Origin: an uncultured Sulfuricurvum sp.
Lineage (GTDB): Bacteria; Campylobacterota; Campylobacteria; Campylobacterales; Sulfurimonadaceae
DNA: 64,000 nucleotides
Direction: 5' to 3'
NCBI GenBank assembly: GCA_964495485.1
Contig: CAZBVJ010000011.1
Span: forward strand, 11,328-75,327
The translations under genes were made by a program, and so were the position numbers. Under the pieces are notes generated by a model, which worked only from the letters and a program-made list of their open reading frames with translations, did no database searches and was not told the origin of the DNA. Below, in pieces: positions 2,872 through 22,041 of the stretch. Every line of letters starts with the position of its first letter. Position 1 is the first letter of the stretch.

Positions 2872-3570
2872 CTATTCTTTGACGAATTTTGATCCGCCGA
2901 TAACGATCGCAATATCTGCCTCTTTCCAGAAAATTGTTCTCCAGATTTGATAATAGATATGAAATGCGACCCAGCACAAAATCAACCACATGGTCAAATG
3001 GTGCGAAATACGGACATCCATCAACGTCCCTCCGCACACCGGAATTGTCCAATCCGTCACCAGATGGAGCATCCACGGCCACCATGCGCCGATCGAACTT
3101 GTCCCAGACCCCAACCCGTGTACGTACATTTGTAGCCCCGTGAGAAGCATCCAAATCAGTAAAAGATGAAAAATCGTAAAATAGACGGTATTGAAACTGT
3201 CCGCATGGGCTGAGTCAAACTCTTTTTTACGGTTGAGGGTCAATAGATTGACCAATACCGCTTTAAACTCACTCACGTTTTGAGCATTAGGAATCAATTT
3301 TTTGTACGGTTTTTCAAAACGGCTGAAAAAGTACAAATACGCGATAATGACTGATGTTACATCAAAAATAATCGCGATAATAAAGTGCCCGTAACGGTTC
3401 CACGCCATCACGTATTTATCGACTGCCGGATCGGCAATAAATGTCTGATAATACGGATGACCGATATAAAGCCCCGTTGCAATGGCACCAATCATACAAA
3501 TCGCATTCACCCAGTGGATGATGCGCATTGCGGGTGTCATACGTTTGACTTGTTTGTACCCTTGTTTCAT
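2872..3570 (-). CDS. hydC: [NiFe]-hydrogenase cytochrome b subunit
   Basis: RIIHWVNA, TGLYIG, RYGH, HHLTMW..FHIY haem-ligand His pattern; directly downstream of the large subunit. Confidence 0.95.
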   Translation of the reverse strand: MKQGYKQVKRMTPAMRIIHWVNAICMIGAIATGLYIGHPYYQTFIADPAVDKYVMAWNRYGHFIIAIIFDVTSVIIAYLYFFSRFEKPYKKLIPNAQNVSEFKAVLVNLLTLNRKKEFDSAHADSFNTVYFTIFHLLLIWMLLTGLQMYVHGLGSGTSSIGAWWPWMLHLVTDWTIPVCGGTLMDVRISHHLTMWLILCWVAFHIYYQIWRTIFWKEADIAIVIGGSKFVKE

Positions 3571-3580
3571 ATTTAGCTCC

Positions 3581-5356
3581 TTAAATACTACAAGAAGTAT
3601 CGACTTTGTAAACAGCTAGCTCTTTACCTTTGGTATCGACGACGTGAACCGCACACGCGATACATGGGTCAAAACTGTGAATAGTACGGATGATCTCCAG
3701 CGGTTGTTCTGGATTGGCCACTTTCGTACCGATCAAACTCGCTTCATACGCACCCATACGGTTTTTATAATCACGCGGAGCCGCATTCCAGGTCGATGGG
3801 ACGATCGCTTGGTAATTGGCTACTTTGCCGTTTTCAACACGTACCCAGTGACCGAGTGCTCCACGAGGAGCTTCAGCCATACCGTGCCCTTTTGCGCTCA
3901 CGCTTACCGCGTCGAAATCAAACTCTGTCCAAGTGCTTTTATCCCCGGCAAGAACGTTCGCTGCAAGCTCATCGATCCATTCGACCATCACGTCAGCCAT
4001 AAGCTCAGTTTCGATAGCCCGCGCCGCCGTACGTCCGATCGTACTGAAAAGTACTGTTACCGGAAGCTTACCGCGCTCCAAAAAGGTCGTGACGTATTTG
4101 CTGATACGCGGATCTTTTGCCGCAACACCGATCACCATACGTGCCAAAGGTCCCACTTCCATACGCTCATCGTTGTAAAGCGGAGATTTAATCCAGCTGT
4201 ATTTCTCTTTGGTTTTGAGATAAGCGTCTCCGTTTTCACGACGGTCAAGCCCTGTGTATTCCGGAACAGTTTCCCCTTCATACGGATGAAGCGGTTTGTC
4301 ACCTTTATACCATGCGTGAGAAACGTCCTCGGCAATTTTTGCCTGATCGAGAGGGATCACTTTTGAGATATCACCGTTCAACACTACGCCGCTTGGGAAA
4401 AGGAGTGCCGATTTGTAAAAACCGGTATCATCCAAACGGAAATCACCGTAACTCATGAAATTCAAGAGTCCGCCACCGGTACCGCCGACCCCTTTACCGC
4501 CAACGAGGTTGCTATACGTTGCCGATGCATCGGTTGCTTCGCCCGCATACATCGTTCCCGCCATATAAACGTCCGGCAAGTACGCTTGTTTGACAAAACG
4601 GCGTGCTTCAAGCAACAACGATTTAAAGAGTGCCAAACGGGCAGGATTGATAATGTCTTGAACACACGTCACCCCACCAACGACGATGCTTTGCGGATGC
4701 GGGTTTTTACCCCCGAAAATCGCCTGCATTTTCGCCATATCACGTTGAAGATCAAGTGCACGGAGATAGTGCGCTACCCCGATGAGATTTTGTTCCGGAG
4801 AAAGTTTATAGTGCGGATTACCCCAATAACCGTTTCCGAAAATTCCCAAACGCCCTTGTTTGACAAATTTCGCGACACGCTCTTGGATCGCTTTAAACTC
4901 GCTCTCACCATCCATAAACGGACTCTCAGCTGCGACAGAAGCCCATTTGCGTGCTTCTGCTGCCGTTTTAGCCGGATCAGCCGAGAGGGCAGAGACGACA
5001 TCGACAAAATCGAGTGCGTGCAAATGATAGAAGTGAACCACGTGGTCATGGACGTACAACGCCCCTTGGATCAAGTTACGAACAATACGGGCGTTTTTCG
5101 GAATAGTGATTTTAAACGCATCTTCCACCGCTTCGATAGAGCGCTGATAGTGAGTCCCCGTACAAACACCACAGATACGCATTGCCAAAAGACCACAGTC
5201 ACGTGGATCACGCCCTTGTAAAATCGTCTCAATACCACGGAACATTGTCGATGCACTGTAGGCATCGACAATCGTGTTGTTATCGTCAATAACCGCCTCG
5301 ATACGTAAATGCCCTTCGATACGGGTAATTGGGTCAACTACAATGTGCTTACTCAT
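3581..5356 (-). CDS. hydB: Group 1 (1b-like) respiratory uptake [NiFe]-hydrogenase large subunit
   Basis: DPITRIEGH, RICGVC (L1), SFDPCIACAVH (L2) plus a cleavable C-terminal tail. Start set at MSKHIVVDP (ATG 5356, AGGAG RBS). Confidence 0.96.
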   Translation of the reverse strand: MSKHIVVDPITRIEGHLRIEAVIDDNNTIVDAYSASTMFRGIETILQGRDPRDCGLLAMRICGVCTGTHYQRSIEAVEDAFKITIPKNARIVRNLIQGALYVHDHVVHFYHLHALDFVDVVSALSADPAKTAAEARKWASVAAESPFMDGESEFKAIQERVAKFVKQGRLGIFGNGYWGNPHYKLSPEQNLIGVAHYLRALDLQRDMAKMQAIFGGKNPHPQSIVVGGVTCVQDIINPARLALFKSLLLEARRFVKQAYLPDVYMAGTMYAGEATDASATYSNLVGGKGVGGTGGGLLNFMSYGDFRLDDTGFYKSALLFPSGVVLNGDISKVIPLDQAKIAEDVSHAWYKGDKPLHPYEGETVPEYTGLDRRENGDAYLKTKEKYSWIKSPLYNDERMEVGPLARMVIGVAAKDPRISKYVTTFLERGKLPVTVLFSTIGRTAARAIETELMADVMVEWIDELAANVLAGDKSTWTEFDFDAVSVSAKGHGMAEAPRGALGHWVRVENGKVANYQAIVPSTWNAAPRDYKNRMGAYEASLIGTKVANPEQPLEIIRTIHSFDPCIACAVHVVDTKGKELAVYKVDTSCSI

Positions 5357-6587
5357 GATTCTCTCCTGAAGTTTCTCGTTTGCCTGCTGCTGCGCTGGCT
5401 GCTGCATGGATCGCGATACCGATTCCGGCTGCGGTTAGCATGCCCAAACCGAATTCGTCCACAGTTTTTTCGACTCCACCTGTCGGTGCTTTAATCTTGG
5501 CATCCGCCATCGGACGCTCATACGCGTATTTATCCCAAAAATCGGGTTCTGAACAACCGATACATCCACGACCGACACCGATTGGCCAGTTGACCGCTTC
5601 ATTATATCGAACGATAGAACAGTTGTTGAACGTCATAGGCCCTTTACATCCCATTTTGTAGAGACAGAAATTGTTTTGCGCTCCTACATCACCCCATTCT
5701 TCAACGTATTCACCCGCATCGAAGTGAGCACGGCGTTCACAGTTATCGTGGATACGATATCCGAATGCAAATTTCGGACGAAGCAATGAATCAAGCTCTG
5801 GCACTTGTCCCGTCAAGACATAATGCAAGATTACACCCACCATGTTGGCAGGGTTTGCCGGACAGGCCGGGATATTGATGAGCGGTTTGTTTTTGACAAC
5901 ATCCATAACCCCAACGGCACCGGTAGGATTCGGAGCCGCTGCCGGAATACCACCGAACGTCGCACAACTTCCTACCGCGATAACGGCTGCCGCATTTTCG
6001 GCACAGCGTACAAGGTGATCATGGAAGGTTTCACCTTTGATCCCGATCGTACCGTACTGACCGTCCATACCCATAGGGATAGCACCCTCGACAAAAAGGA
6101 GATATTTCCCTTTGAAATGCTCCATTGCCTCTTCAAGCTGTTTCTCTGCTTGATGTCCGGCAGCCGCTTGAAGCGTTTCATGGAACTCCAAAGAGATGAT
6201 ATCAAGAACAATCTCATCGATTTTCGGTCCGTCAGCACGTAAGAGTGCTTCAGAGTTACCCGCACAATCTTGGAGCTCAAGCCAAATGACCGGAGCACGG
6301 TTCATCATTACGGCGGCATCGGCAACCAACGGTGTAAACATTGGAGGGAGCATCAACATCGCTGTCGTTGCACTCGCCCATTTCATGAACTCACGACGGT
6401 CAATCCCGTTCTCTTCCAACAACTCGCTAAAATCAAGTTTATTAGCCGGTGTTTGAGCGCGCATCTCATTCAAACGCGCTTCACATTTTGCGAATAAGTC
6501 TTGATAATACGACTCACCCTTGTTCGTCTCAACGCGCGAACTTTTCGAAGTGAACAGTTTTTTAACCGCTTCTACTTTATCGGACAT
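5349..6587 (-). CDS. hydA: Group 1 [NiFe]-hydrogenase small subunit, Tat-exported, with C-terminal membrane anchor
   Basis: DRREFMK twin-arginine motif; WLELQDCAGNSE, GSCA, PACP, HDNCERR, CLYKMGCKGP, GCIGC; hydrophobic C-terminal helix. Confidence 0.96.
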   Translation of the reverse strand: MSDKVEAVKKLFTSKSSRVETNKGESYYQDLFAKCEARLNEMRAQTPANKLDFSELLEENGIDRREFMKWASATTAMLMLPPMFTPLVADAAVMMNRAPVIWLELQDCAGNSEALLRADGPKIDEIVLDIISLEFHETLQAAAGHQAEKQLEEAMEHFKGKYLLFVEGAIPMGMDGQYGTIGIKGETFHDHLVRCAENAAAVIAVGSCATFGGIPAAAPNPTGAVGVMDVVKNKPLINIPACPANPANMVGVILHYVLTGQVPELDSLLRPKFAFGYRIHDNCERRAHFDAGEYVEEWGDVGAQNNFCLYKMGCKGPMTFNNCSIVRYNEAVNWPIGVGRGCIGCSEPDFWDKYAYERPMADAKIKAPTGGVEKTVDEFGLGMLTAAGIGIAIHAAASAAAGKRETSGENHE

Positions 6588-7999: not shown

Positions 8000-8066
8000 A
8001 TTATTTTCCCGTCCTCATCTATTTCCCTCTTCAACACCTCATTTTCCACTATCTCATCAATAAACA

Positions 8067-8345: not shown

Positions 8346-8589
8346 ATTTCGCGATTACACGATCAAATGCTTCATCTATCCCGATGTATTCGCCCCGCTC
8401 GATCTGCTCTTTTGCCTCTTTGAGTTCGCGTTTGAGCTGTGCATGGGTACGGTTGTATTCATCGAGGGACATGATGACGACACTCTTGTCGTTTTTGGTC
8501 GTGACAATCACCTCTTCGTTATTGTCACACACTTCATCGATGATCGATTTGAGCGAGTTACGTGCGGTAGTGTAGTTGAGTGCTTGCAT
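8335..8589 (-). CDS. Phd/YefM-family antitoxin
   Basis: MQALNYTTARNSLKSIIDEV..EEVIVT..VVIMSLDEY is the Phd/YefM signature. Start reassigned to ATG 8589. Confidence 0.88.
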   Translation of the reverse strand: MQALNYTTARNSLKSIIDEVCDNNEEVIVTTKNDKSVVIMSLDEYNRTHAQLKRELKEAKEQIERGEYIGIDEAFDRVIAKYAD

Positions 8590-8601
8590 CGGGTTGCCTT
8601 T

Positions 8602-8626
8602 ATGACAGCTTTCTGTCATTATAGCA
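8602..8626 (-). promoter_or_regulatory. Toxin-antitoxin operon promoter (extended -10) with palindromic autoregulatory operator
   Basis: Minus strand reads TGCTATAAT (8626-8618), overlapping the perfect palindrome ATGACAG-N4-CTGTCAT (8602-8619). Confidence 0.7.
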
Positions 8627-8636
8627 CTTTTTATCC

Positions 8637-9932
8637 CTAATGCGTCGTGCAAACCGAACAGACATCAAAGGTACGAAATATCAATGATGCTTTCGCGATC
8701 GATTCTGCTCCGATCATCGCCTTCTGCGCTACTCCGAGAGCGGAACCATCGCCGTTTCCAAGATTCCATTGCGTCGGGGTGATAATCGAGTACGAGGCGA
8801 TACGCCCTTTTTCGATACGGGCGCGGTGGATCAGTGACCCGCGCGGGGCTTCCACGATCCCTACCCCAGAGCCGCTGATACTCTCGATAGAAGAGGGGGT
8901 GATAAACGAGGGTTGCGAAAGATCCAGTGTACTCAAAAGATAACGGATCTCGGTGATCAAACTCACCATCTCATACACTCTGGCACTCAGCCGCGTCTGT
9001 GCACTATCCCCATAACGGTGATAGAGGGCACTTATCCCCTGAACATCTGCTATCAACGCGCGGGCAAGCGGTCCGGTTTCAAAAAACTTCCCATTGTAGA
9101 GGGCATTTTTGGCATGAGTATTTCCCCCTTGTGTAAACGTATGTGAATCATCCTCACTCACCAAAGCAGCGTCAGCATGTGAGCGCTCACCATTTTCCCA
9201 TACGCCGCGCCCCTCCCCTAAAACCAAAAATCGATCGTGACTTTTCCCGCTAGCGAGGAGATTTAAACGTTCAAACTGTCTCAACAGCGTTGAAAAATCC
9301 CCCTCCAGCATCCGATGGGAATCATTTTTGAGATGGAGTTCAAACTTCTCCAGCGGACACCCCAACACCTCTTTGGCAATAAACTGCTCCACTTCGCCAA
9401 GGATTTTCAGCGCCTGCATCACCTCGATATGGGTCGGATCGCACGTCACCCCGCCCGGAAGAGCGTAAGAGCTATGCGGCCATTGTCCGCTGAAAAGGGC
9501 ACTGAGCTGATTGATCTGTGAGGTCATATAGAGGACTTTGAGAGAGAGGTTTGCCTCTTCACCCAAAAGCTTTGCGCTCTCGTGCAGCATCACGAGATAG
9601 AGCCATTTGATATGGTTTTGAAGCAGCTCGCATTTGAGGGTGATTTCTCGAATGGCATGAGCCTTTGGGGTGATCGTTAGGGAGAATCCTGCATCGATAT
9701 AAGCGTTCTCGATCATCCGAGCCGCCGCGATGAGATGGGAGTGTCCGCATATACCGCACACGCGTGGTGCAATCACGAGAGCATCAAGAGCGTTACGCCC
9801 CTCCAAGATCGCTTCCATCCCTCTAAAATGGACAAATCGGATGTCAGCTTCTTGAACGGCTCCTTTTTTGTCGGTTGTAAAATCGAGTACCGCTTCCCCC
9901 TCGATCCGCTCGATCAGTTCATGCGTTATCAT
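8637..9932 (-). CDS. Group 2 (2d-like) cytoplasmic [NiFe]-hydrogenase large subunit
   Basis: ERIEGE, APRVCGICGHSH, FDVCSVCTTH at the very C-terminus (no cleavable extension). Confidence 0.9.
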   Translation of the reverse strand: MITHELIERIEGEAVLDFTTDKKGAVQEADIRFVHFRGMEAILEGRNALDALVIAPRVCGICGHSHLIAAARMIENAYIDAGFSLTITPKAHAIREITLKCELLQNHIKWLYLVMLHESAKLLGEEANLSLKVLYMTSQINQLSALFSGQWPHSSYALPGGVTCDPTHIEVMQALKILGEVEQFIAKEVLGCPLEKFELHLKNDSHRMLEGDFSTLLRQFERLNLLASGKSHDRFLVLGEGRGVWENGERSHADAALVSEDDSHTFTQGGNTHAKNALYNGKFFETGPLARALIADVQGISALYHRYGDSAQTRLSARVYEMVSLITEIRYLLSTLDLSQPSFITPSSIESISGSGVGIVEAPRGSLIHRARIEKGRIASYSIITPTQWNLGNGDGSALGVAQKAMIGAESIAKASLIFRTFDVCSVCTTH

Positions 9933-10809
9933 CGATCAATCTCCCCTCAAGCCGTTTGATATGAAACGATTTCGCCGCCCCTGCGAGTGCAAGATAGCTC
10001 CGTTTCGGTACCCCCAGCGGCATCTCTGCGGGGATCGACATATAGGTTTTGGTTTTAAAGAGTTCCGTTTTTGGGAAGGAGGGTTCGGTGCAGCCGACAC
10101 ACGGTGTTCCCGCGCGGGTTTTGGAACTCACCTCGTTCCAGAGTATCTTGTTACAACTGCCGTGGGTATAAGGTCCCTGACACCCTTGGGCATAATACAA
10201 ACACCCCTCTTTGGTTCCGAAACGCTCACTGTCCACTTTCCACTCAAAATACTCATTACGCAAACAGCCGTTGTGGACGAGATAGCCGTACAGTTCTTTG
10301 GGGCGGCGGTACTCATCGAGATTGAGTTTTTTACCCTGAACGATCATATCGATCACAAAACTGAGCCATTTGGGATGGATAGGACATCCGCTGAGGGTAA
10401 TCACTTTTTTAGACAGATCTCGAAGCGGTCCGATAGGGCTCTCTTTGTCAAAAAGTATCCCGCTGATGTGTTCGGGATGAGCTTCTTTGAAAATCCCTCC
10501 GAAACTGGCACAGCTTCCCAATGCAATAATATGTTTGCTCTTAAGTGCCAAATTCATGAGAAGATTTTCCATTCGCATTTCTGCGCGCTCAAAATCAGCT
10601 CGATACGCTCCCTCGAAAATGAGAATATCCGATTTTGGGAGTTTCTTGACGAGTTCTTTGAGTGTCTTTTGGCAAGGGAGGAGCGGATGGTGGATAAATT
10701 CAATCGATTCCAAAAGGCTCCCCAATGAGGGGTCGTTGAGAAACGAGTGGGTGTTACCGTTGCAGGTGATCCCTTGCAGCCAAATGACTTTAACGGGTTT
10801 TGAGGGCAT
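9919..10809 (-). CDS. Group 2 [NiFe]-hydrogenase small subunit (no Tat signal)
   Basis: WLQGITCNGN, GSCASFGGI, SGCPIHP, HNGCLRNEYFE, GCL..QGCQGP, PCVGCTEP. Probable start MPSKPV at 10809. Confidence 0.9.
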   Translation of the reverse strand: MPSKPVKVIWLQGITCNGNTHSFLNDPSLGSLLESIEFIHHPLLPCQKTLKELVKKLPKSDILIFEGAYRADFERAEMRMENLLMNLALKSKHIIALGSCASFGGIFKEAHPEHISGILFDKESPIGPLRDLSKKVITLSGCPIHPKWLSFVIDMIVQGKKLNLDEYRRPKELYGYLVHNGCLRNEYFEWKVDSERFGTKEGCLYYAQGCQGPYTHGSCNKILWNEVSSKTRAGTPCVGCTEPSFPKTELFKTKTYMSIPAEMPLGVPKRSYLALAGAAKSFHIKRLEGRLIDDNA

Positions 10810-11383
10810 AATAGATATTTTCGGCGATGGTGTGTTCATACTCTTCTAAGGGCTTAGGGAGGATATTTTCACCGTGGATAAATACCATTCCCCCCAAATA
10901 TCCCATAAACAGACCGAACGCACTGAAAAAGTCCTGATCTCTCAGATCCCCGCATCGTACCCCCTCTTCGAAGAAGATCATCATCTCGGTCACAAATGCG
11001 GAGACGCAGATCATCCCCTCACAACTGTTTTGAAACACTTCGCGGTTGGAGAGATACACGCGCAAAAAATACTCAATCGTCTCAGGACGATCTTTGGCGA
11101 TACGAAAATACATATGAACAATCGCTTCAATCTTCTCTTGAGTCGTACGATCACTTTCGTTAATAGCACGAATCTCTTCACCCAAAATGTTGGCGATATA
11201 GAGGATGAGATCTTTGGCCAGCATCTCTTTGGAGGTGAAATAGTTGTAGAGGTTCCCCACACTCATCCCGATTTTCTCGGCAATGGTAGGCATCGTTGTT
11301 TGGTAAAATCCCTCTTTGGAAAAAAGCTCCAGCGCTTTAGTCATGATCGAGATTTTACGTTCTTCTTTGGTGGGGCGTGCCAA
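10790..11383 (-). CDS. TetR/AcrR-family transcriptional regulator
   Basis: ALELFSKEGFYQTTMPTIAEKIGMSVGNLYNYFTSKE helix-turn-helix; overlaps the group 2 small-subunit gene. Confidence 0.93.
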   Translation of the reverse strand: MARPTKEERKISIMTKALELFSKEGFYQTTMPTIAEKIGMSVGNLYNYFTSKEMLAKDLILYIANILGEEIRAINESDRTTQEKIEAIVHMYFRIAKDRPETIEYFLRVYLSNREVFQNSCEGMICVSAFVTEMMIFFEEGVRCGDLRDQDFFSAFGLFMGYLGGMVFIHGENILPKPLEEYEHTIAENIYYALKTR

Positions 11384-11415
11384 TTCATTTACCTCATAAA
11401 AAATTCATTTTTACA

Positions 11416-11436
11416 ATTATACCGAACAACTGTTCA
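11416..11436 (-). promoter_or_regulatory. tetR -10 box (TATAAT) with adjacent palindrome GAAC-AACT-GTTC
   Basis: ATTATA at 11416-11421; palindrome at 11423-11436 resembles the one at the hydA promoter. Confidence 0.5.
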
Positions 11437-11610
11437 TTATTTTATAATGTGATAATTCTTTTCTTTTGGCATCGACAAAATCATTCATTCCATGAATAAG
11501 CATATATTCAATACGTCACTTTTAACAAAATAGTGGCTCTTACTTACTAATTAATTAAACATATTTAAATAAAAAGATACAATAAGCACCAAAATAATAG
11601 GAAGTAAATA

Positions 11611-12900: not shown

Positions 12901-12927
12901 AGCTGGATTCACCCAAAGAGCACTTCG

Positions 12928-12949
12928 CCCGATCAAGTCGGGAATGACG
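12928..12949 (-). repeat. CGTC-tagged REP-like palindrome
   Basis: Minus strand reads CGTCATTCCCGACTTGATCGGG, a CGTC tag followed by a CCCGA..TCGGG stem. Confidence 0.5.
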
Positions 12950-12964
12950 AAAATATTTCCCTAA

Positions 12965-14659
12965 TTATAGCGAACAAGCATTCATTATTTTATACTGTGA
13001 TAACTCTTTTCCCTTTGCATCGATCACATGCACCGCACATGCCAGACACGGATCGAATGAGTGGACGGCACGTAAAACCTCCAACGGGGCGGCAGGATCG
13101 GCGAGCTTCAACCCGATCAACGACTCCTCATACGCTCCGCGCCCCTCTTTCACTCCCTTAGGGGATGCGTTCCATGTGGTCGGAACAACCGCTTGGTAAT
13201 TAGCGATTTTGGCATCCTCGATACGGACGAAATGACCCAAAACACCGCGCGGTACTTCAAAGATACCGGCACCTTTCGCTTCGCGAGGAAGCTCTTCAAA
13301 CACGTATTTTGTCCACGTACTCTCATCGTAGTATTTGATGTTTTCGATCAGATCGCTCATCGTATCAAAGAGATAATCGCAGCAGATTTGCGCTTCGACA
13401 GCACGCGCGGCATTACGCCCGATGGTGGTGGAAAAATCGATGAGTTCCATACCGGATCGTTTCATAAACCGTTCCATATAGGGGCGCACCACATCCGAGT
13501 GTGAAACATATCCGACAATCATCCGTGCCAAAGGTCCCACTTCCATCACGTCACCTTCATACCGCGGTGCTTTGATCCAGCTGTATTTCCCCTCGGTTTT
13601 GAGGCTTCCGTCTTCATTGAGATCGGTATAAAACGGCGTCGTATCCCCCTCATACGGAGAGAGAGGTTCATCGTTTTCATACCATGAGCGGGATGCCTCT
13701 TCGGTGATTTTACTCGCATCAAACGGCTCGATGTGCTCAAAGTCATGTCCTCGGATTACACCACTTGCAAAAAGGTGTTGATCTTTTCCGATACGGTATC
13801 CGCCGCAACACATGAAATTCCCGACTGCACGACCATCTCCTGCTTTGATCTCATCACGGTATGCGTTGATAATCATCAACATATCGGGAATATAGGCACG
13901 TTCGATAAAATCACGGGTCTCTTTGATGATAAAGAGAAAATCGTTCAGCCGTTGTGGATTGAGCATATCGGCAACGCTCGTAACCCCTCCGACAACCAGA
14001 TTTTGGGGATGGGGAGTTTTCCCCGCAAAAATCGCCACCGCTTTGGAAAGCTCACGCTGTATTCTCAACGCTTCGAGATAGTGGTTCATGTGTACCAAAT
14101 TCTCTTCAGGGCTAAGCCGATAGGCACTGTGCCCCCAGTAACCGTTGGCAAAGAGTCCCAACCGTCCCGCTTTGACAAAACTCTCCAGTTTCTCTTTCAC
14201 CGCTTCGAGATGACCATCAGAGTTGCGATACGGATGATCCGACCAAATCTCCGCCTCTTCCGAAGCTTGGGTACAGTCCGCCCGTAGCGCTCCCGTAATG
14301 TCGACAAAATCGAGCGAATGGAGGTGATAGTAGTGGACGATATGATCTTGGACAAACAGCGAAAGGGTGACAAGGTTGCGGATAATTTCGGCGTTGTGAG
14401 GGATTTCAATACCGTACGCCGCTTCCACGGCACTGATCGAGGCACGATAGTGAACGTTTGTACATACCCCGCAAATACGCTGAGCGATCAATCCCGAATC
14501 GCGAGGATCACGCCCGCGCAAAATCGTCTCAATCCCCCGAAAGAGCTGACCCGATGCCCATGCTTCGGTGACGACGTTGTTCTCATCAATTTCTACCTCG
14601 ATCCGCAGATGACCCTCGATGCGGGTAATCGGGTCTATAACGATTTTTTTAGTGCTCAT
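12965..14659 (-). CDS. Second group 1-type [NiFe]-hydrogenase large subunit
   Basis: DPITRIEGH, QRICGVC, SFDPCLACAVH plus C-terminal tail. Start MSTKKIVIDP at 14659. Confidence 0.94.
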   Translation of the reverse strand: MSTKKIVIDPITRIEGHLRIEVEIDENNVVTEAWASGQLFRGIETILRGRDPRDSGLIAQRICGVCTNVHYRASISAVEAAYGIEIPHNAEIIRNLVTLSLFVQDHIVHYYHLHSLDFVDITGALRADCTQASEEAEIWSDHPYRNSDGHLEAVKEKLESFVKAGRLGLFANGYWGHSAYRLSPEENLVHMNHYLEALRIQRELSKAVAIFAGKTPHPQNLVVGGVTSVADMLNPQRLNDFLFIIKETRDFIERAYIPDMLMIINAYRDEIKAGDGRAVGNFMCCGGYRIGKDQHLFASGVIRGHDFEHIEPFDASKITEEASRSWYENDEPLSPYEGDTTPFYTDLNEDGSLKTEGKYSWIKAPRYEGDVMEVGPLARMIVGYVSHSDVVRPYMERFMKRSGMELIDFSTTIGRNAARAVEAQICCDYLFDTMSDLIENIKYYDESTWTKYVFEELPREAKGAGIFEVPRGVLGHFVRIEDAKIANYQAVVPTTWNASPKGVKEGRGAYEESLIGLKLADPAAPLEVLRAVHSFDPCLACAVHVIDAKGKELSQYKIMNACSL

Positions 14660-17078
14660 GTTCACCCTCCGGTAATTTGCGGTTATTGGCATACAGATCA
14701 AATGCGATTTTTCCCTGACCGCAGCCGAAACATCCATGTCCCGCCTGCACCGGCCAACTCGTCCCCTCGTTGAATTTCACGAGTGAGCAGTTGAGATCGG
14801 CGTAAGGCCCTTTGCATCCCATCTGAAAGAGACACCACCCCTTCTTCGCCCCCTCATCGCCCCATTCGAGGACGAACTCTTCCGCATCATAGTGCCCTCG
14901 GCGCTCACAGTTGTCATGAACGCGAAACCCATACGCCCATTCGGGACGGTTGTGGCTGTCGAGCTTCGGAAACTCATCGAACATCAGATACTGCAACAAC
15001 GTTCCGACAATATTGATCGGATTGGTCGGACATCCGGGGAGGTTAATGATGTCCTCTCTTCCCAGCGCTTCGGCTACCCCGACTGCTCCCGTCGGATTTG
15101 GTGCTGCCGCTACCACACCGCCATCGTAGGCACACGATCCCACCGCGATCACCGCAGCCGCATTTGCGCTCACACGGCGCAACAAATCAACTCCCGTCTC
15201 ACCCTTAGGTCCGATCCGTAAAAATTTACCGTCCATCCCCAATGGAACTGCCCCCTCGACAATCAAGACGTATTTGCCGCTATCGTTGTGGAGGATACTC
15301 TCCAGCGCCGATTCGGAATTATCCCCCGAAGCCGCCATCAGCAATTCGTGATAATCGAGTGAAATGTATTTGAGAATCAGATCATCCACCTTTGGATGAG
15401 AGGTTTTGATAAACGCCTCGGAATTTCCCGTACAATCGGAGAGTTCGAGCCAGATAATGGGGATTTTATTGAGGTTCGTGACCCCCTCTTCCACGACGCT
15501 CTCAAAGCGTGGATGCAAATGCATCGATGCGGTGATCATCGAAACCCAGCGGTTAAACTCGCGGCTCATCTCGAACGATTCCAACGCCTCGTGAAAATTC
15601 TCACTGCTGAGCTGATTTGCAGGATGGAGACGGTTGTATTTCTCGATCCGAGCACGCACTTTTTCCAGTTCCGCCGCCTGCGCCGCATCAAGTTTTTCTT
15701 GACGCAAGCGTGCCGCTTCAACAGGATCGACGGGCGTTGCACTGATAATCGTACAAATATCCTGTTTACACCGTCCGCAGGTACGTCCCGCTTTGGAATG
15801 TTCTTTGAGCTCACCGAACGACGTTACGGCATTCTCTTTGATGATATTGACCAACTCTAATTCATGCACCCCTTCACAGCTGCAAACGAGTCTTCCGTAT
15901 TCGGACATCAGACGATTGGAGTAGAGATACGCCGGATCAATCGGCGCATCGGTTTCGATCAGCCGTTTCAATGCCAAAAGATCGATGTTGGTGTTGATCC
16001 CGATAAAGCGTTTCAGTCGGTCATTCTTGACGATATACTGATCGATCCGATCTTTGTGGGTGATCAAAATCGTCTCATTTTCGGCATCTTTGGGATCAAA
16101 ATCGGTCGCCGTCACATCGGCGAACAAAAACGATCCCACTTTGAGCCCGTCAAGGGAGACCTCTTCTTTGAACGATGCATCTGTATCTCCGAGCAGATGC
16201 GCAATCGCCACATCGGCTTCGAGGGTACACTCTTTCACCCGTCCTGCGATAAAGCCCCCCGTCCGAAGCTGTGCCGCTTCACCGACACAGTAGATATCCG
16301 GATTCGAGGTAAGCAGATGTTCATCGACCAAAACCCCATTGTCACACTCAAGAGCTTCTCGTGCAAAAGGGATATTCGGATCGATCCCGACCCCGAAAAT
16401 GAGAAACGGATTCTCGATCTCCCCTTTCTGGGTGATTAGTTTGGTGATCGTATTGCCCGAAATCTCTTTGTCCGTAATCTGGTCGTTAAACTGAATGCGA
16501 ACCCGTTTATCCGCTTCGAAAATCCCCTGAACCAGCGCCAACCCCTCACGGCTGATCACTTCGGAATAGAGATAGTTTTTACGCACCAGCAAGGTGATAC
16601 TTTTGGGTGCATCGCTGCGCGTGAGGGTATCGAGCAACTCCAACGCGATAGGTCCTGCCCCGACGATCACGACATTACGTCCTATCATCCCCTGCGCAAT
16701 CTGTTCGCAATCGCTCTGACTCCGAAACGTCGCCGCATTCTCAATGCCTGCAATATCAAAAAGCGATTTGGGAATCGATCCCGTCGCAATAATGAGTTTA
16801 TCGTAATGAAACGCGGCGTGTTGGCTCAATACCCGCTGGCTGTTAGGGTCGATGGAGAGAATCTTTTGATCCAGTTCCAGTTTCACTTTCGGGTTCAGTT
16901 CCAACTCGATGGAGTCCACACAATTGCAATCCTCTACCAGTTTGCACAGATGGATCCGATCATAGGGGGGATGCTTCTCATCCGAAACGATCACCACCTC
17001 GGACTCCGGAGCCTTCTCCATCAGAGAATTGGCGATATAGACGGCGGCTATTCCGCCTCCGACGATAACAATGCGCAT
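14649..17078 (-). CDS. Fusion: NirB-like FAD/NAD(P) oxidoreductase + BFD [2Fe-2S] + [NiFe]-hydrogenase small subunit
   Basis: IVIVGGGIAA, YDRIHL, IIATGS, VVIVGAGPIALE, TSNPDIYCVGE; C-x-C-x32-C-x2-C; then WLELSDCTGNSE, GSCA, PGCP, HDNCERR, CLFQMGCKGP, HGCFGC. Confidence 0.92.
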   Translation of the reverse strand: MRIVIVGGGIAAVYIANSLMEKAPESEVVIVSDEKHPPYDRIHLCKLVEDCNCVDSIELELNPKVKLELDQKILSIDPNSQRVLSQHAAFHYDKLIIATGSIPKSLFDIAGIENAATFRSQSDCEQIAQGMIGRNVVIVGAGPIALELLDTLTRSDAPKSITLLVRKNYLYSEVISREGLALVQGIFEADKRVRIQFNDQITDKEISGNTITKLITQKGEIENPFLIFGVGIDPNIPFAREALECDNGVLVDEHLLTSNPDIYCVGEAAQLRTGGFIAGRVKECTLEADVAIAHLLGDTDASFKEEVSLDGLKVGSFLFADVTATDFDPKDAENETILITHKDRIDQYIVKNDRLKRFIGINTNIDLLALKRLIETDAPIDPAYLYSNRLMSEYGRLVCSCEGVHELELVNIIKENAVTSFGELKEHSKAGRTCGRCKQDICTIISATPVDPVEAARLRQEKLDAAQAAELEKVRARIEKYNRLHPANQLSSENFHEALESFEMSREFNRWVSMITASMHLHPRFESVVEEGVTNLNKIPIIWLELSDCTGNSEAFIKTSHPKVDDLILKYISLDYHELLMAASGDNSESALESILHNDSGKYVLIVEGAVPLGMDGKFLRIGPKGETGVDLLRRVSANAAAVIAVGSCAYDGGVVAAAPNPTGAVGVAEALGREDIINLPGCPTNPINIVGTLLQYLMFDEFPKLDSHNRPEWAYGFRVHDNCERRGHYDAEEFVLEWGDEGAKKGWCLFQMGCKGPYADLNCSLVKFNEGTSWPVQAGHGCFGCGQGKIAFDLYANNRKLPEGEHEH

Positions 17079-17081
17079 GGT

Positions 17082-17513
17082 CTACTCCTCACTCTTGTTT
17101 TGAATTTTAGCCGATTTTTTGGCCGCTGCGTAGCTTTCGCGGCTTTGGAGGCACGCTGCTTCATACACAAACCACTCCGTGTTTACCTCATCTTCACTCA
17201 CGGCACTGCTCTGTTTTTTCTCGCTTTGCCACAACGCTTCTTCGGGTTTCGGGCAGGCACGGACACATTCGCCGCAGTAGATGCAGAGCCACGGATTATA
17301 GCGATACGTTTTTGAGCCGTCTTCATGTTGGAAAAAGAGGATTGCTCCGGGGGGGCACACTTTTTCGCATTTATCACAGTAGATACACGCCTCATGATCG
17401 TGTTCAATCAACCCTCGATACCCACTCGGTAAAACAATTGCTTCGGTAGGGTATTTGTGCGTTCGGATTGGTCTAAAAAGGTTCAAAAATGCTTCAATCA
17501 TCGATTTAAACAT
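17082..17513 (-). CDS. echF: Ech-type hydrogenase 2x[4Fe-4S] subunit (EchF/NuoI-like)
   Basis: THKYP..YRG, CIYCDKCEKVCP and CIYCGECVRACP. Confidence 0.85.
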   Translation of the reverse strand: MFKSMIEAFLNLFRPIRTHKYPTEAIVLPSGYRGLIEHDHEACIYCDKCEKVCPPGAILFFQHEDGSKTYRYNPWLCIYCGECVRACPKPEEALWQSEKKQSSAVSEDEVNTEWFVYEAACLQSRESYAAAKKSAKIQNKSEE

Positions 17514-17522
17514 CTGAGCCTC

Positions 17523-18608
17523 CTACTTCGCCGTACACGACATACACGGATCGAACGACGCGAGGATGGCGGGGGCATCGGCATATTCGCTCCCTTTGAA
17601 TACCTCCATCATCGCAGGAATAGATGAAAAGGTCGGTGTCTTGATCCGCACTCGCTCCAACATATTTTGACCGCTCCCCCGCACCAGATAAAAGAGCTCT
17701 CCGCGCGGCGCTTCGACACGCACTACCGCTTCGCCGTTTGGTTTACCTTTGGTCTTCTCCTGTATCTCTCCCGCAGGAAGATTCTCCACGATGTTTCGGC
17801 ACATCTCTATCGAGTTCACGATCTCCCGCAGACGGACAAAATTGCGCGCATGAATGTCTCCGCTTGATTCGAGCATCATCCGATACCCTATCTCTTCGTA
17901 GGGAAAATCGCTCGTCTCGGCGCGCACGTCGGTTGCCAGTCCCGCCGCACGAGCCAAGGGTCCGAGCGCATTATAGGTATAGGCATCCTCCAAACTCAGC
18001 ACCCCCACCCCTTTGTATTTGAGCGAGAGCGACCAGTTGTTGTCGAAAAGCCCGATCAACGTATCGATTTTTTCAGACAGTATCCCCAAATTTTTACGCA
18101 CCAACTCGGAGAGCTCGGGAGTCAAATCACGGTTTACTCCGCCGATCGAGATAAAATCAAACTGCACGCGGTTCCCGCTGATCGCTTCTTGCAGCTCCAT
18201 CACCAGTTCACGATCTCCCATGATCTGCATAAAGAGGGCTTCAAATCCCGCATTTTCCGCCGTATGCGCTAGACAGAGCATGTGCGAGTGGATACGATCC
18301 AACTCCACCATCAACATCCGTAGGTATTTGATCCGATCATTAGCCACATACCCTAGCAACTTCTCGGCGGCGAGAGTATACGAGAGCGAGTGGGTGATCG
18401 CGCACAGCCCGCACACGCGAGCCACGACATACCCCACCTGTTTGAACTCAAAACTGCGAGTACACGCCAATTCCACCCCCCGATGGACGAATCCCACATC
18501 GGCATCGACTCCGATAATCTTTTCGTTTTCGCACTCAAATTTGAACCGTATCGGCTCCAGTAGCGAGATATGCTGTGATCCCAAAGGGATATGGATCGTT
18601 TTTTTCAT
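17523..18608 (-). CDS. echE: Group 4 (Ech-type) [NiFe]-hydrogenase large subunit
   Basis: GFVHRGVE, ARVCGLCAITH, ELDRIHSH, EAPRGE, FDPCMSCTAK at the C-terminus. Confidence 0.9.
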   Translation of the reverse strand: MKKTIHIPLGSQHISLLEPIRFKFECENEKIIGVDADVGFVHRGVELACTRSFEFKQVGYVVARVCGLCAITHSLSYTLAAEKLLGYVANDRIKYLRMLMVELDRIHSHMLCLAHTAENAGFEALFMQIMGDRELVMELQEAISGNRVQFDFISIGGVNRDLTPELSELVRKNLGILSEKIDTLIGLFDNNWSLSLKYKGVGVLSLEDAYTYNALGPLARAAGLATDVRAETSDFPYEEIGYRMMLESSGDIHARNFVRLREIVNSIEMCRNIVENLPAGEIQEKTKGKPNGEAVVRVEAPRGELFYLVRGSGQNMLERVRIKTPTFSSIPAMMEVFKGSEYADAPAILASFDPCMSCTAK

Positions 18609-18949
18609 GATTCCCTCCGTAACGGATGGGGCTGTGAATCCTCATCGAGATAAAGCCCTCGCTCCGCACCCTCGACGCTAAGACCGAACATATCCACAAT
18701 CTCCCGCTCCCCCATGTAAGCTGAGGGGATCAGGCTCACGAGCGATGGGACAGGGGTCTCATAATCACTGAGAGCATAATAGATCACGATCTCATCTTTA
18801 ACCCCATAGCGGGAAAAGATCCATTGCAGCTCAATTTTCCCCTCTCCCAGATCGACCCCGTTAACGCTCAAAAAGTGCCATTCTCGGGGAACATAAAACG
18901 CTGTGATGTCGCCCAGTAGCGTTGCTAATGTTGTCTCAATCTTTCTCAT
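18605..18949 (-). CDS. echD: EchD/NuoC-like small subunit
   Basis: VPSL..LIPSAYMGEREIVDMFGL NuoC-like motif; operon position. Confidence 0.82.
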   Translation of the reverse strand: MRKIETTLATLLGDITAFYVPREWHFLSVNGVDLGEGKIELQWIFSRYGVKDEIVIYYALSDYETPVPSLVSLIPSAYMGEREIVDMFGLSVEGAERGLYLDEDSQPHPLRRES

Positions 18950-19466
18950 GGTATCCCACCTTTGTTGCCATCTTCAATCGGCTGAGTTTATGACCGATCG
19001 TCTCAATCGCACCGAAGAGCTTGTAAGGTTTCTCGATTGCTTTGCTTTTGGCTTCCAAAATATCCAAGGCTTTCACGACCCCATCGATGATGAGCTGAGG
19101 AGTGGAAGCGCATCCGGGGACATAGACATCGACGGGGATATAACGATCAATCCCGTCCTCAACATTCACCATCCCCCGAAACACGCCCCCCGTTGTTGTA
19201 CACGATCCCACCGCTACGACTACTTTGGGTTCGGGGATTTGGGAGTAAAGTTCGACGAGCCGCTCACGGGAGCGGTAGGTCACGGGACCGGTGACGAGAA
19301 AAATATCCGATTGCTTCGGATTTCCCGTGTTGATTACCCCGAAACGCTCCAGATCGTATTTTGGGGCGAGGGAGGCGAGGATTTCGATGTCGCATCCGTT
19401 GCAGCTCCCCGCATTGTAATGAAGCACCCACGGCGATTTTTTCCTAAAAGAGCTAAAAAACTTCAT
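18936..19466 (-). CDS. echC: Group 4 hydrogenase small subunit (EchC/NuoB-like)
   Basis: GSCNGCDIE, LVTGPVT, VGSC, DVYVPGC. Confidence 0.9.
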   Translation of the reverse strand: MKFFSSFRKKSPWVLHYNAGSCNGCDIEILASLAPKYDLERFGVINTGNPKQSDIFLVTGPVTYRSRERLVELYSQIPEPKVVVAVGSCTTTGGVFRGMVNVEDGIDRYIPVDVYVPGCASTPQLIIDGVVKALDILEAKSKAIEKPYKLFGAIETIGHKLSRLKMATKVGYHEKD

Positions 19467-20281
19467 AACACCACCCCTGCGAGGTTGAGTACCGCCAGAG
19501 CCATCGCCACCGTATAGATAATTTTTACCACCTGAGCAGGTCTGACCCGTGCGGTCGCGTTATCGATGAGATTGACGAGCAAAAAGACCCCCGCGACCAA
19601 CAGCGCCCCCATCCAATGCGACTCTCCGCCGAAGAGGTAGACAAAGCTGTAGATAAAGATATATTCGAGAAAGCGTGACATATACAAAAACTCGTAAAAC
19701 ACCCCGCTGTATTCGATCTCGACCCCTCCGACGATCTCCTGATGCGCTTCACCGACATCAAACGGCGATTTTTTCACCTTGATCGGGACGATCATCAACA
19801 GTGCGATAAACAATAGTAGCAATGTCGGCAAATAGCCGCCGCTTCGGAGTATCTGCGAAATATCGAAACTCCCGCTCACGAGGTACAACCCCACCGCCAC
19901 CAAAACGAGGATCGGCTCATACGCCACTACCATGAGCAATTCCCGATTCGATCCCAGATGCGAATAGACCGAGCGGACACTGTATCCCGCTACGATGAGG
20001 AGGAGTTGGGCAAAGAGGTGCAAGAAAATGATATAGAGGAGATTCCATCCCAAAAAGATCGCCGCAACGGCAAACCACAATACGGCGAAATGGGCGATGG
20101 CAAGGAGAGCATGGGGAGCATGAACGATCAACGTCCGTTTATCCAGAAGCTTGAACATATCGTAAAACGGCTGCAACAAGGGCGGACCCAGACGCCGCTG
20201 CATCCGCGCACGCATCACCCGCTCAAACCCATACACCAAACCGCCCAACACGGGAGCAAGCACAATCCAAACCCAGATCAT
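19463..20281 (-). CDS. echB: EchB/NuoH-like membrane subunit
   Basis: ERVMRARMQRRLGPPLLQPFYDMFKL, PFD..EAHQEIVGGVEIEYSG. Start at 20281 with an ATGA overlap. Confidence 0.88.
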   Translation of the reverse strand: MIWVWIVLAPVLGGLVYGFERVMRARMQRRLGPPLLQPFYDMFKLLDKRTLIVHAPHALLAIAHFAVLWFAVAAIFLGWNLLYIIFLHLFAQLLLIVAGYSVRSVYSHLGSNRELLMVVAYEPILVLVAVGLYLVSGSFDISQILRSGGYLPTLLLLFIALLMIVPIKVKKSPFDVGEAHQEIVGGVEIEYSGVFYEFLYMSRFLEYIFIYSFVYLFGGESHWMGALLVAGVFLLVNLIDNATARVRPAQVVKIIYTVAMALAVLNLAGVVL

Positions 20282-22041
20282 GAGAGCACCCCGATAATTG
20301 CTACGGCGACAAAGAGGATACCGAAAACCCAATACACAATACTCAACATTCTCTCTGATGGCTCATAATAGACCAATGCCGCATCAAAAGGCTCTTTTTC
20401 TCCGCAATGGTAGGGCTGTGACCGGTCATACCGATCGAGGCGCCGAATGAGTGCGGGAAGTGCAAAGACAAAGAGCATCGGCAATGCCATCAAAACAACA
20501 AAAATATTGTGCTGCATCATCACATACCCCAGTGCCCCGATGACGATCAAAAAACTAAGCAGCATTAAGGGAGCACTAAAACCGCTTGGAATAGCAACCG
20601 CTTCGGAGGGTTCAACATCGCTCGGTGCGGATAGCAGTGCCGACGCGACTTTAAAATAGAGCAATACCATCAATGCGCTTCCGACGATCAGGGATAAAAG
20701 GACGATAAGCGTGAGAGGGTGTTCTTTGAGCAATGCGGCAACGGAGCTAATCGCAAAGAGTTTCCCCATAAACAATCCAAACGGCGGAAGAGTCAGCGAG
20801 ACAAACCCAAAGAGGATAAACCCGATGGTTTTCGGTGATTTTCTCACCATCCCTTTCATCTCTTCGATGTTTTTGGCATGGTGCAATCGTTCAAGTACCC
20901 CCGCCGAGAGAAACAGCAACGCTTTGGAGAGAGCATGAAAGAGCATCAATGCCATAGCGAGATTCATGCTCTCTTCGGTACCGATTGCCGCCAACGCCAT
21001 CATGAGTCCCAACAATGCCACCGTCGAGTACCCCAGTATCTCTTTGAGCACCGAGCGCGATAGTGCCAGATACGACGCCGCAACAAATACGAGCGACCCG
21101 ATAATCGATATGAGACTCCCCACCGCACTCATCGCCAACACAGGGGAGAGTTTGAGGATCAGGTACGGAGCGATTTTGACCATCGTCGCCGAGTGGAGCA
21201 TCGCACTCACGGGAGTCGGTGCGACCATTGCCCCGAGCAACCACCCCTCGAACGGAATCGATGCCCCTTTGACCAGTGCCGCCATCGAGAGGAGCGCCAC
21301 CGCCAAGAGGATCATCCCACCCGAACTTTCCATCAACGTATCGAACATCACGCTCTTAAAGCCGATGATCGCGACCAACGCCCCGAGTAATATCACCACT
21401 CCGCCAATCTGATTCATCCACAATGCTTTGAGGGCATTGGAGCGGCTCACCTCATCGTCTCTAAAAGCGATCAACAGATACGATGCGAGGGTCGTCATCT
21501 CAAAAAGGAAGAAGAAAAGGAGGATCGAGTTAGCGATCACGATCAGATTCATCACCGAGAGAAAAACGAACATCCCCCCGATAAAAAGCTGCTTTTTGAG
21601 CGGTGTGGTCGGTTCATCTTCCATGTATTTGATCGAATAGAGGACGATAATCCCCCCAACCATGTTGATAATCAAAAACATAAATCTCGAGAGATTATCA
21701 ACCACGATATCCGCCGATCCCGATGCAGGAGCAATCATCTCGATATATCCGTATAACGCCAATTGCACCGCCGCCAATGCCATTACTTTGGGGTGGTTAA
21801 AAACTCTACCTTGATAGAGGAAATAGAGAAGCAGTCCGATATCGGCCATCATCAGGAGGGGATGGATCATCGGAGGAAAAGTGTATGTCGTTACACCCCC
21901 TATCGATTGATACAAATAAAGGGAAAAGAAACTCAAACCTGCTAGGAGTGTACCGCTAATGGCATAATGAGCCTGACGAGAAGGGATGATCAGTATCAAC
22001 AACGCGGCGAGTATAGGAAACACAAAAAGAATCACTACCAT
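20278..22041 (-). CDS. echA: EchA/NuoL-like antiporter-type proton-translocating subunit
   Basis: Many TM helices; FEMTTLASYLLI, WLLGAMVAPTPVSAMLHSATMVK, HALSKALLFL. Confidence 0.9.
   Translation of the reverse strand: MVVILFVFPILAALLILIIPSRQAHYAISGTLLAGLSFFSLYLYQSIGGVTTYTFPPMIHPLLMMADIGLLLYFLYQGRVFNHPKVMALAAVQLALYGYIEMIAPASGSADIVVDNLSRFMFLIINMVGGIIVLYSIKYMEDEPTTPLKKQLFIGGMFVFLSVMNLIVIANSILLFFFLFEMTTLASYLLIAFRDDEVSRSNALKALWMNQIGGVVILLGALVAIIGFKSVMFDTLMESSGGMILLAVALLSMAALVKGASIPFEGWLLGAMVAPTPVSAMLHSATMVKIAPYLILKLSPVLAMSAVGSLISIIGSLVFVAASYLALSRSVLKEILGYSTVALLGLMMALAAIGTEESMNLAMALMLFHALSKALLFLSAGVLERLHHAKNIEEMKGMVRKSPKTIGFILFGFVSLTLPPFGLFMGKLFAISSVAALLKEHPLTLIVLLSLIVGSALMVLLYFKVASALLSAPSDVEPSEAVAIPSGFSAPLMLLSFLIVIGALGYVMMQHNIFVVLMALPMLFVFALPALIRRLDRYDRSQPYHCGEKEPFDAALVYYEPSERMLSIVYWVFGILFVAVAIIGVLS

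Follow-up and report, generated by a model that had tools for sequence, protein, structure and literature searches.

A group 1b [NiFe] hydrogenase fused to a NirB-type flavoprotein module in Sulfuricurvum: a candidate soluble H2:NADP+ oxidoreductase

In this work, a two-gene hydrogenase locus was analyzed in an uncultured Sulfuricurvum sp. (NCBI GenBank assembly GCA_964495485.1). The window, meaning here the whole stretch of 64,000 nucleotides (nt) that was analyzed, covers positions 11,328 to 75,327 of the forward strand of contig CAZBVJ010000011.1, and all PF00374 matches of the genome sit in it, in four genes. The locus encodes a [NiFe] hydrogenase large subunit and a small subunit of 809 amino acids (aa) that begins with a flavin adenine dinucleotide (FAD)/nicotinamide adenine dinucleotide (phosphate) [NAD(P)] reductase module (Table 1). 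The 809-aa frame contains no internal stop. Pfam assigned Pyr_redox_2 to residues 1-269 (E 1e-38), Fer2_BFD to 397-445, Oxidored_q6 to 549-696, and NiFe_hyd_SSU_C to 716-789, and the best NCBIfam matches were hydA over 505-788 and NirB over 3-450, the NirB match being well under its cut-off. The initial annotation, which had read a single open reading frame (ORF) with an FAD/NAD(P) module, a BFD domain, and a complete group 1 small subunit, is thus borne out, as is the spacing C-x-C-x32-C-x2-C that it gave for the BFD cysteines. In the domain-architecture comparison, the identical domain set was found in all 120 homologues among the matches listed; 645 of the 7998 candidates scored had passed E 1e-20 in the homologue search. 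Membership among the NirB nitrite reductases was rejected, since Pfam found no siroheme-[4Fe-4S] (NIR_SIR) domains in the fusion and the NirB score was 122.8 bits against a cut-off of 578.

Table 1. Features of the fused hydrogenase locus and of its surroundings; positions count from the first letter of the window.
Feature	Position	Strand	Remarks
Fused small-subunit gene	14649..17078	(-)	809 aa; FAD/NAD(P) reductase, BFD [2Fe-2S], linker, and group 1b small subunit
FAD/NAD(P)H reductase module, NirB/NasA-C-terminal type, aa 1-390	15909..17078	(-)	Predicted NADP-type site V165-R166-K167; family-specific invariant C45, C284
BFD-type [2Fe-2S] domain, aa 397-445	15744..15890	(-)	Ligands C399, C401, C434, C437; conserved 201/201
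Linker, aa 451-537	15468..15728	(-)	Probable HydA-type precursor N-terminal extension and Tat signal remnant; twin arginine lost
Small-subunit domain, aa 538-800	14679..15467	(-)	Without C-terminal anchor
Group 1b [NiFe] large subunit	12965..14659	(-)	564 aa from likely start 14659 (longest ORF start 14737)
hydABC, ordinary periplasmic	2872..6587	(-)	Tat signal, C-terminal anchor, cytochrome b; context and internal control
TetR regulator and group 2-type hydrogenase pair	8637..11383	(-)	TetR 10790-11383; pair 9919-10839 and 8637-9932, presumably group 2d
Ech-type (group 4) operon, six genes	17082..22041	(-)	Ends 3 nt before the fusion; presumably subgroup 4e
echA	20278-22041	(-)	
echB	19463-20281	(-)	
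echC	18936-19466	(-)	
echD	18605-18949	(-)	
echE	17523-18608	(-)	Both Ni-binding CxxC motifs
echF	17082-17513	(-)	

The fused pair is real, conserved, and under selection. That the two halves are separate genes, joined by chance read-through or by misassembly, is a negligible possibility, which was refuted by family, phylum, and contig data, and nothing was found in its favour. The alignment holds 201 non-identical full-length fusions, 52-92% identical to the window protein, many of which are close kin and not independent. Within the phylum, the fusion was found in 27 of 401 sampled Campylobacterota genomes, the window's own included (query residues 1-573), and all 27 matches lie in one open frame, 26 at full query length and one truncated where its contig ends. 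Contigs from another sample (run X4, from the study that also supplied the possible source runs, though not itself marked as a source) showed no differences over 15345-16016, 16309-16931, 14180-14770, and 16914-17982, and they bridge the stretch from the BFD domain through the linker to the small subunit as well as both gene junctions. An assembly artefact is ruled out by these contigs together with the family-wide fusion. The same protein, of 813 aa, is also reported from finished genomes in the literature. The ratio of nonsynonymous to synonymous substitution rates was 0.026-0.158 in all four modules (8 pairs, one value undefined), which indicates purifying selection.

By family, and with the window's own genome excluded, the carriers amount to 18/34 genomes of the window's family, 5/20, 2/23, and 1/4 in others, and none of the 118 and 158 sampled genomes of the two largest families. 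The large subunit lies directly after the fusion in 94 of 99 loci, a set from which 7 duplicates had first been dropped; a contig end cuts three loci and the genes are apart in two. One of these has the fused small subunit and the large subunit about 9 kb apart (L061, 10001-12421 and 21248-22412), and the other has them on different contigs (G232, C63 vs C62). No large subunit was recovered from the fragmented genome G262, in which the fusion lies at a contig end. The record titles of L079 (Helicobacter pylori) and L067 (Izemoplasmatales) clash with gene content or tree position, and both records look like metagenome-assembled contigs that were mislabelled or misbinned. A search of the genome gave no further copy of the FAD-BFD module. 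The best 150 of a 50%-cluster library held one full-length family member and fragments, and no second independent fusion was found among them, although split forms were not searched for.

The large subunit carries the L0, L1, and L2 motifs and a cleavable C-terminal extension. Its L1 and L2 motifs are those of group 1b, and the first His of L3 is replaced by Gln. It matched the NCBIfam group 1 model with E 1e-158 and ShyA with 2e-28, and its best solved relatives are Desulfovibrio group 1 enzymes. The overlap with the fused gene that the initial annotation described exists, but it measures 11 nt and not 89 nt, because the large subunit most likely starts at 14659, where GGAGG stands upstream and which fits the length of the homologues (about 552-566 aa). 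In a quick tree of a chosen subset (47 rows), the large subunits of 29 fused loci formed one group 1 clade apart from two HydB clades (Shimodaira-Hasegawa-like approximate likelihood ratio test 99), and their identity to HydB is about 50%. For the small subunit, the cores of 19 fusions also formed one clade (support 100; FastTree, 97 rows), which nests in a 40-row group with Campylobacterota HydA types (support 97). These results agree with the origin independent of group 3 that the initial annotation had assumed: the large subunit belongs to group 1, and the genome, which is 100% complete, gave no match to PF01512, the NuoF/HoxF-type diaphorase domain (HyhG had no search of its own). Membership in group 3b/3d was rejected on the same grounds.

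The fused pair holds the NiFe ligands and three Fe-S cluster sites of a canonical group 1b enzyme. Of the 201 sequences, 200-201 keep the FAD motifs, the four cysteines of the BFD domain, and each of the 11 ligand positions of the small subunit, which contradicts the view that the Fe-S sites are not conserved. The proximal cluster would be held by C549, N552, C649, and C683, the medial by C764, C783, and C786, and the distal by H721, C724, C749, and C755, assignments that we take over from known small-subunit structures. P776, invariant in 88/88, is presumably the mark of a [3Fe-4S] medial cluster. The sole departure among the ligands is the Asn at the second proximal position, which is common to the window's HydA and to 9 of 49 small subunits with a twin-arginine translocation (Tat) signal. 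Since all Fe-S ligands are intact, the doubt about cluster binding in the fused small subunit (Hansen & Perner 2016; PMC4744846) is answered.

The linker between the BFD domain and the small subunit is most likely the dead Tat signal of a HydA-type precursor. Over 88 aa, residues 451-540 share 30% identity (E 5e-10) with the N-terminal extension and Tat signal of the window's HydA precursor (its residues 15-99). A hidden Markov model (HMM) of the family linker was run over 175 proteins and 8933 genome ORFs. Of its 23 matches at E < 0.01, five were members of the family or fragments, 17 were precursors whose RRxF is in register (with three duplicate pairs among them), and the last was a small subunit in which the motif has decayed; none of the unrelated ORFs came under E 1. 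The RR at this position is kept in none of the 201 fusions. From this we infer that a flavin module was joined to the front of a whole precursor and that the signal then decayed. The module itself would be of the nitrate/nitrite-reductase type and would have been joined once. Its nearest relatives are the C-terminal FAD-BFD part of fused assimilatory nitrate reductases and the N-terminus of NirB, at 25-29% identity over about 440 aa. W511, S513, M514, and L521 of the linker are invariant in 201/201, so the linker has likely gained a structural role.

The fusion is predicted to be a soluble, cytoplasmic enzyme. As the initial annotation had noted, it has no N-terminal Tat signal, no C-terminal anchor, and no adjacent cytochrome b gene: RRxF occurs in the first 70 aa of 0/201 family sequences, the Kyte-Doolittle peak over the last 60 aa is 0.37 vs 1.64 in the anchored HydA of the same window, and the sole cytochrome b gene of the window (2872..3570) follows hydAB. 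A HydC-like gene was found directly after the large subunit in 0/94 loci, detection being by likeness to the window's HydC only. The cytoplasmic location that the annotation had proposed is thus supported by sequence, phylogeny, and fold. Canonical HydABC membership was rejected, because the twin-arginine signal persists only as an internal remnant without RR and both the anchor and the cytochrome b partner are missing. Two observations concern other group 1 small subunits. P0128, a stand-alone small subunit of 369 aa, is sister to HydA and has a decayed twin-arginine motif and a short tail that does not look hydrophobic, so it may be another cytoplasmic group 1 derivative, one that lacks a flavin module. 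Eleven rows within P0140-P0167 form a clade of group 1 small subunits that lack RRxF, and several of them bear long C-terminal extensions (480-810 aa); the extensions of P0140, P0141, P0144, and P0161 gave no Pfam match where checked.

Residues 1-391 are predicted to fold like ferredoxin:NAD(P) reductases (Z 34-35, root mean square deviation (rmsd) 2.6-2.8 A, 375-381 residues aligned); the fold searches covered the flavin module (residues 1-397 at most). An Aromatoleum aldehyde oxidoreductase subunit, 8c0z_E, also matched (Z 31.6, rmsd 3.0, 385 aligned); this subunit presumably passes electrons of an Fe-S chain to NAD+. The fold of the module recurs in persulfide and CoA-disulfide reductases as well (Z 30-31). 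C45 and C284 of the flavin domain are invariant in 201/201 and absent from 6/6 related nitrate/nitrite-reductase modules. The second Rossmann motif, G140-x-G142-P-x-(G/A)-x-E147, is almost invariant in the family, as is Arg166 (199/201), and at the end of the second Rossmann strand no sequence has Asp or Glu at 165 (0/201). Residues 165-167 align with positions 175-177 of BphA4, of which the mutants E175A/C/Q, T176R, and Q177G have been deposited. Mutants at these positions reportedly prefer NADPH. Wild-type BphA4 depends on NADH, and its Glu175 binds the NAD ribose (bioRxiv 10.64898/2026.08.07.743380). Because there is no acid at 165, Arg166 is kept, and the site aligns with BphA4 175-177, we infer that NADP(H) is a more likely cofactor than NAD(H); an NADH-specific enzyme was rejected on the second-Rossmann-strand motif.

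The design of the fusion is already known from genome papers since 2006. In Thiomicrospira crunogena XCL-2, Scott 2006 (PMC1635747) described a small subunit of two domains that has sites for FAD and NADH but lacks a twin-arginine leader, and suggested a transfer between H2 and NAD(H) in the cytoplasm. Hansen & Perner 2016 (PMC4744846) gave it as 813 aa and group 1b and listed the same small subunit in S. kujiense, Sulfurovum sp. AR, S. autotrophica, and A. nitrofigilis. In strain SP-41, the fused gene is expressed, with the highest level when H2 is the sole donor (Gonnella 2019; PMC6501319). The novelty implied by the initial annotation did not hold, as both the architecture and the H2/NAD(H) proposal were in print in these three papers, and the surprise is accordingly limited. 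Its remark that it knew of no biochemical characterization stands: no purified fused-type enzyme was found in the literature, in a search that reached few subscription papers. The accessible text of PMC4584990 and PMC4674564 makes no mention of the fusion. In the XCL-2-type papers, as far as accessible, the site is called NADH-binding, the BFD domain and the Tat remnant are unmentioned, and the Fe-S sites, intact in the window's family, are doubted. What is added here is the NADP prediction, the intact ligands, the putative fossil Tat linker, the Ech link described below, and the carrier count.

By its sequence, the pair belongs with the XCL-2-type fused group 1b hydrogenases, in which it was placed via a Thiomicrorhabdus proxy and the published descriptions. 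The XCL-2/SP-41 primer from the 2016 paper matched five stretches, of which only this proxy (L084) is a fused locus; the others are an ordinary group 1 locus (L082), a locus with a distant large subunit (L083), and two stretches without a hydrogenase match (L081, L085). The protein of L084 (813 aa) is 60% identical to the window protein over 1-802 and falls inside the fused clade. The nearest named relatives are Sulfuricurvum, with S. kujiense (L006) at 88% identity. Like 'cluster I' of Hydrogenovibrio crunogenus XCL-2/SP-41 (Tcr2037-2038), the pair combines a group 1b large subunit with a small subunit of about 810 aa that includes a pyridine nucleotide-disulfide oxidoreductase domain, and it has neither a Tat signal nor cytochrome b; unlike the XCL-2 descriptions, it follows an Ech operon and shares its cluster with three other hydrogenases. 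With the periplasmic group 1b enzymes (HydABC of Wolinella/Campylobacterota and of the window itself), it shares the large-subunit motifs, the Fe-S ligands including the proximal Asn, and a homologous precursor N-terminus, but it lacks a working Tat signal, an anchor, and cytochrome b, carries the extra FAD-BFD module, and forms a separate clade. The best non-family matches for aa 1-450 were NirB and assimilatory nitrate reductase modules, which have the same order of Pyr_redox_2 and BFD and the same motifs. In contrast to these enzymes, the fusion has neither a siroheme nor a molybdopterin domain, is joined to a hydrogenase, and has the two extra invariant cysteines.

The six-gene Ech-type operon upstream of the fusion was overlooked in the initial annotation. 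It comprises two membrane genes, a small, a C-like, and a large subunit gene, the last without a C-terminal extension, and a ferredoxin-like gene. An EchE match was found in 25/401 genomes, of which 10 are among the 27 carriers, and in seven of those 10 no more than about 10 kb separates the Ech cluster from the fused one. In the window's family, 6/6 other Ech genomes carry the fusion, five of them adjacent. At the 99 fused loci, Ech is upstream in 23, downstream in three, absent from 43 with full flanks, and not judgeable in 30. The two layouts suggest a recurrent link between Ech and the fusion, although the kin are not independent and most carriers have no Ech; an obligate Ech partner was rejected, as 17/27 carriers gave no EchE match. 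The ech genes and the fusion may be on one transcript, judging by gene spacing alone, and a promoter and terminator scan of 11300-22700 gave no more than chance would (11 against 15.8 expected, and 9 against 11.8). RNA-library contigs of relatives cover the operon (X19 28/30 bins, X20 11/30) but were not used as evidence, because the presence of a contig does not prove transcription and the stretch with low cover, a strain-specific insert, is no silent control. Upstream of ech lies a gene for 154 aa (22129-22593) without a Pfam or NCBIfam match. In L011, this gene stands directly before the fusion and Ech is missing, which points to gain or loss of the ech block.

We hypothesize that the fused pair is soluble and acts as a reversible H2:NADP+ oxidoreductase that, at ample H2, likely provides NADPH to fix CO2, and we give this function about an even chance. 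By homology at each step, H2 would be split at the NiFe site, and the electrons would pass through the three clusters and the BFD [2Fe-2S] cluster to FAD, from which hydride would go to NADP+. With H+/H2 at -414 mV, the equilibrium H2 is 7e-4, 7e-3, and 3e-2 atm for pyridine nucleotide pools at -320, -350, and -370 mV, respectively. The reaction would therefore run near equilibrium, with net uptake only above roughly 0.1-3% H2 and a valve for NADPH below, so that its direction would follow the H2 level as in the bidirectional group 3 enzymes. The fused hydrogenase thus probably works like group 3b/3d (HyhBGSL, HoxFUYH), with the soluble, reversible H2/NAD(P)H exchange of those enzymes, but it would do so with group 1 catalytic subunits, two genes instead of four or five, and an FAD module of the glutathione-reductase fold instead of a NuoF-type flavin mononucleotide or HyhG diaphorase. 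The genome, which is 100% complete, contains ATP-citrate lyase and NifH and gave no match for PntB or glucose-6-phosphate dehydrogenase; together with the lack of a NuoF match, this was counted as a need of the host for the enzyme. ATP-citrate lyase was also above the cut-off in 23/26 other carriers, and the expression of the SP-41 gene, which peaks on H2 as the only donor, likewise speaks for the function. At high H2, the enzyme would supply NADPH for the reverse tricarboxylic acid (TCA) cycle in a host without a detected transhydrogenase or glucose-6-phosphate dehydrogenase, and where Ech lies alongside and gives reduced ferredoxin, the two may cover both reductants of the cycle.

Several points weigh against this function. 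The required 7e-4 to 3e-2 atm exceeds the H2 level of many aquifers. The two AlphaFold models are confident for the flavin module and poor for the C-terminal domain of the small subunit, with a predicted template modelling score of 0.56 and a predicted local distance difference test below 50 over 715/719-809, and they do not fix the position of the BFD domain on the distal cluster. An Arg after the second Rossmann strand was also present in 5/6 nitrate/nitrite-reductase-type modules compared, so Arg166 may be inherited and not selected in the fusion, and the carriers without an EchE match count here as well. In physiological work, XCL-2, whose only group 1 enzyme is of the fused type, consumed no H2 under any tested condition and neither of its fractions reduced methyl viologen, while SP-41, TH-55, L-12, and MA-3 had their uptake activity in the membrane fraction (PMC4744846). 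S. autotrophica, which has one group 1 enzyme (Table 3, PMC7952632), listed as the fused type (PMC4744846), showed neither growth on H2 nor uptake activity (PMC4584964). Operation near equilibrium could account for low net uptake at 1.5-2% H2, yet it does not account for the inactive extracts.

The same enzyme might have H2 evolution as its physiological job, as a valve that reoxidizes NAD(P)H when oxygen or nitrate is short (proposed by Scott 2006), and we consider this a minor yet real possibility. It is established that NirB/NasA-type modules normally send the electrons of NAD(P)H outward, the reaction is downhill below about 0.1-3% H2, and published carriers with only the fused group 1 enzyme showed no net uptake; the fused type was the sole full-length group 1-type large subunit found in 6/26 carriers. 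On the other hand, a valve should still reduce methyl viologen with H2, which XCL-2 extracts did not, expression in SP-41 rises with H2 as the sole donor, and the hosts, judged from ATP-citrate lyase, are mostly autotrophs short of NADPH and not rich in it. It is improbable that the main partner of the flavin is not NAD(P) and that electrons go to O2, polysulfide or persulfide, or rubredoxin- or flavodiiron-type proteins, perhaps via the two family-specific cysteines. Their invariance and absence from related modules, the fold shared with persulfide and CoA-disulfide reductases, and position 46, where the Lys by which BphA4 binds its flavin (K53) is not kept, would fit such an acceptor. However, a disused nucleotide site would not keep the Rossmann motif and Arg166, thiol-free ferredoxin reductases top the fold ranking, and C45 aligns with S52 of BphA4, a position that is presumably not that of the redox Cys in CoA-disulfide reductases.

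We see an equally slight chance that the enzyme is docked on the inner face of the membrane in a larger complex, e.g., on Ech or on the cytochrome b of another hydrogenase. The membrane activity of the fused-type Hydrogenovibrio strains agrees with docking, Gonnella 2019 suggest a borrowed anchoring, and Ech adjoins the pair, on either side, in 26/69 judgeable loci. Yet Ech is not nearby in 43/69 loci, 17/27 carriers lack an EchE match, the C-terminus has no hydrophobic segment, and the ordinary group 1d enzyme that SP-41 also has (Gonnella 2019; PMC6501319) explains its membrane activity. Lowest among these readings we place a protein of low activity or a regulatory one (an H2 or redox sensor), or an enzyme that stays unmatured under ordinary conditions, which is very unlikely. 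No activity was reported for XCL-2 or S. autotrophica, 16 loci have a TetR gene after the large subunit, and the subunit genes are apart in 2/99 loci. Against this, all catalytic motifs and the cleavable C-terminus are intact, purifying selection is strong, and no kinase partner is conserved; moreover, a maturation protease homologue lies nearby in 34 loci (identified by eye), and a full hyp set flanks the Thiomicrorhabdus copy of the pair.

It is also conceivable, though unlikely, that the ech and fused operon forms one reductant unit with H2 as an internal carrier, showing no net H2 uptake. The fused enzyme would turn NADPH into H2, or take up H2 from nitrogenase or from outside, and Ech, driven by the proton gradient, would spend this H2 on making reduced ferredoxin for nitrogenase and the reverse TCA cycle. 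It would amount to a hydrogen loop inside the cell that serves reverse electron transport in sulfur oxidizers, and to a third, independently evolved, NADP-specific wiring of a NiFe hydrogenase to pyridine nucleotides. If the H2:NADP+ oxidoreductase function is correct, group 1 would have reached NAD(P) coupling independently and in the smallest known layout (two structural genes), and the enzyme would be a candidate for H2-driven NADPH recycling. Surveys that score every Campylobacterota group 1b enzyme as periplasmic respiratory uptake (e.g., PMC4584964, PMC7952632) would then misread a share of them, the share at issue being the fusion carriers of the window's family, over half of its sampled genomes, and those carriers with no other group 1-type enzyme found. 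The 20-year-old question of the role of the XCL-2 enzyme becomes more testable, as the predictions are NADP+ over NAD+, intact clusters, and near-zero net flux at 1.5-2% H2, the level of several earlier growth tests.

Some further observations concern the surroundings. A second hydAB type, about 50% identical to that of the window, often lies downstream of the fused pair (L018, L028, L039, L057, L060, L066, L069). Between the large subunit and tetR, the plus strand carries an ORF for a lipoprotein-like protein of 429 aa (11611-12900) with lower G+C and no Pfam or NCBIfam match, which had no match in the 80 loci compared. Between hupL and hydA, 6807-8652 (-) holds a pentapeptide-repeat-like ORF, a membrane ORF of 198 aa, and a small toxin-antitoxin-like pair (by eye). 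Just beyond the left end of the window lie hyp genes, two protease-like genes, and a nickel-transporter-like set, likewise identified by eye.

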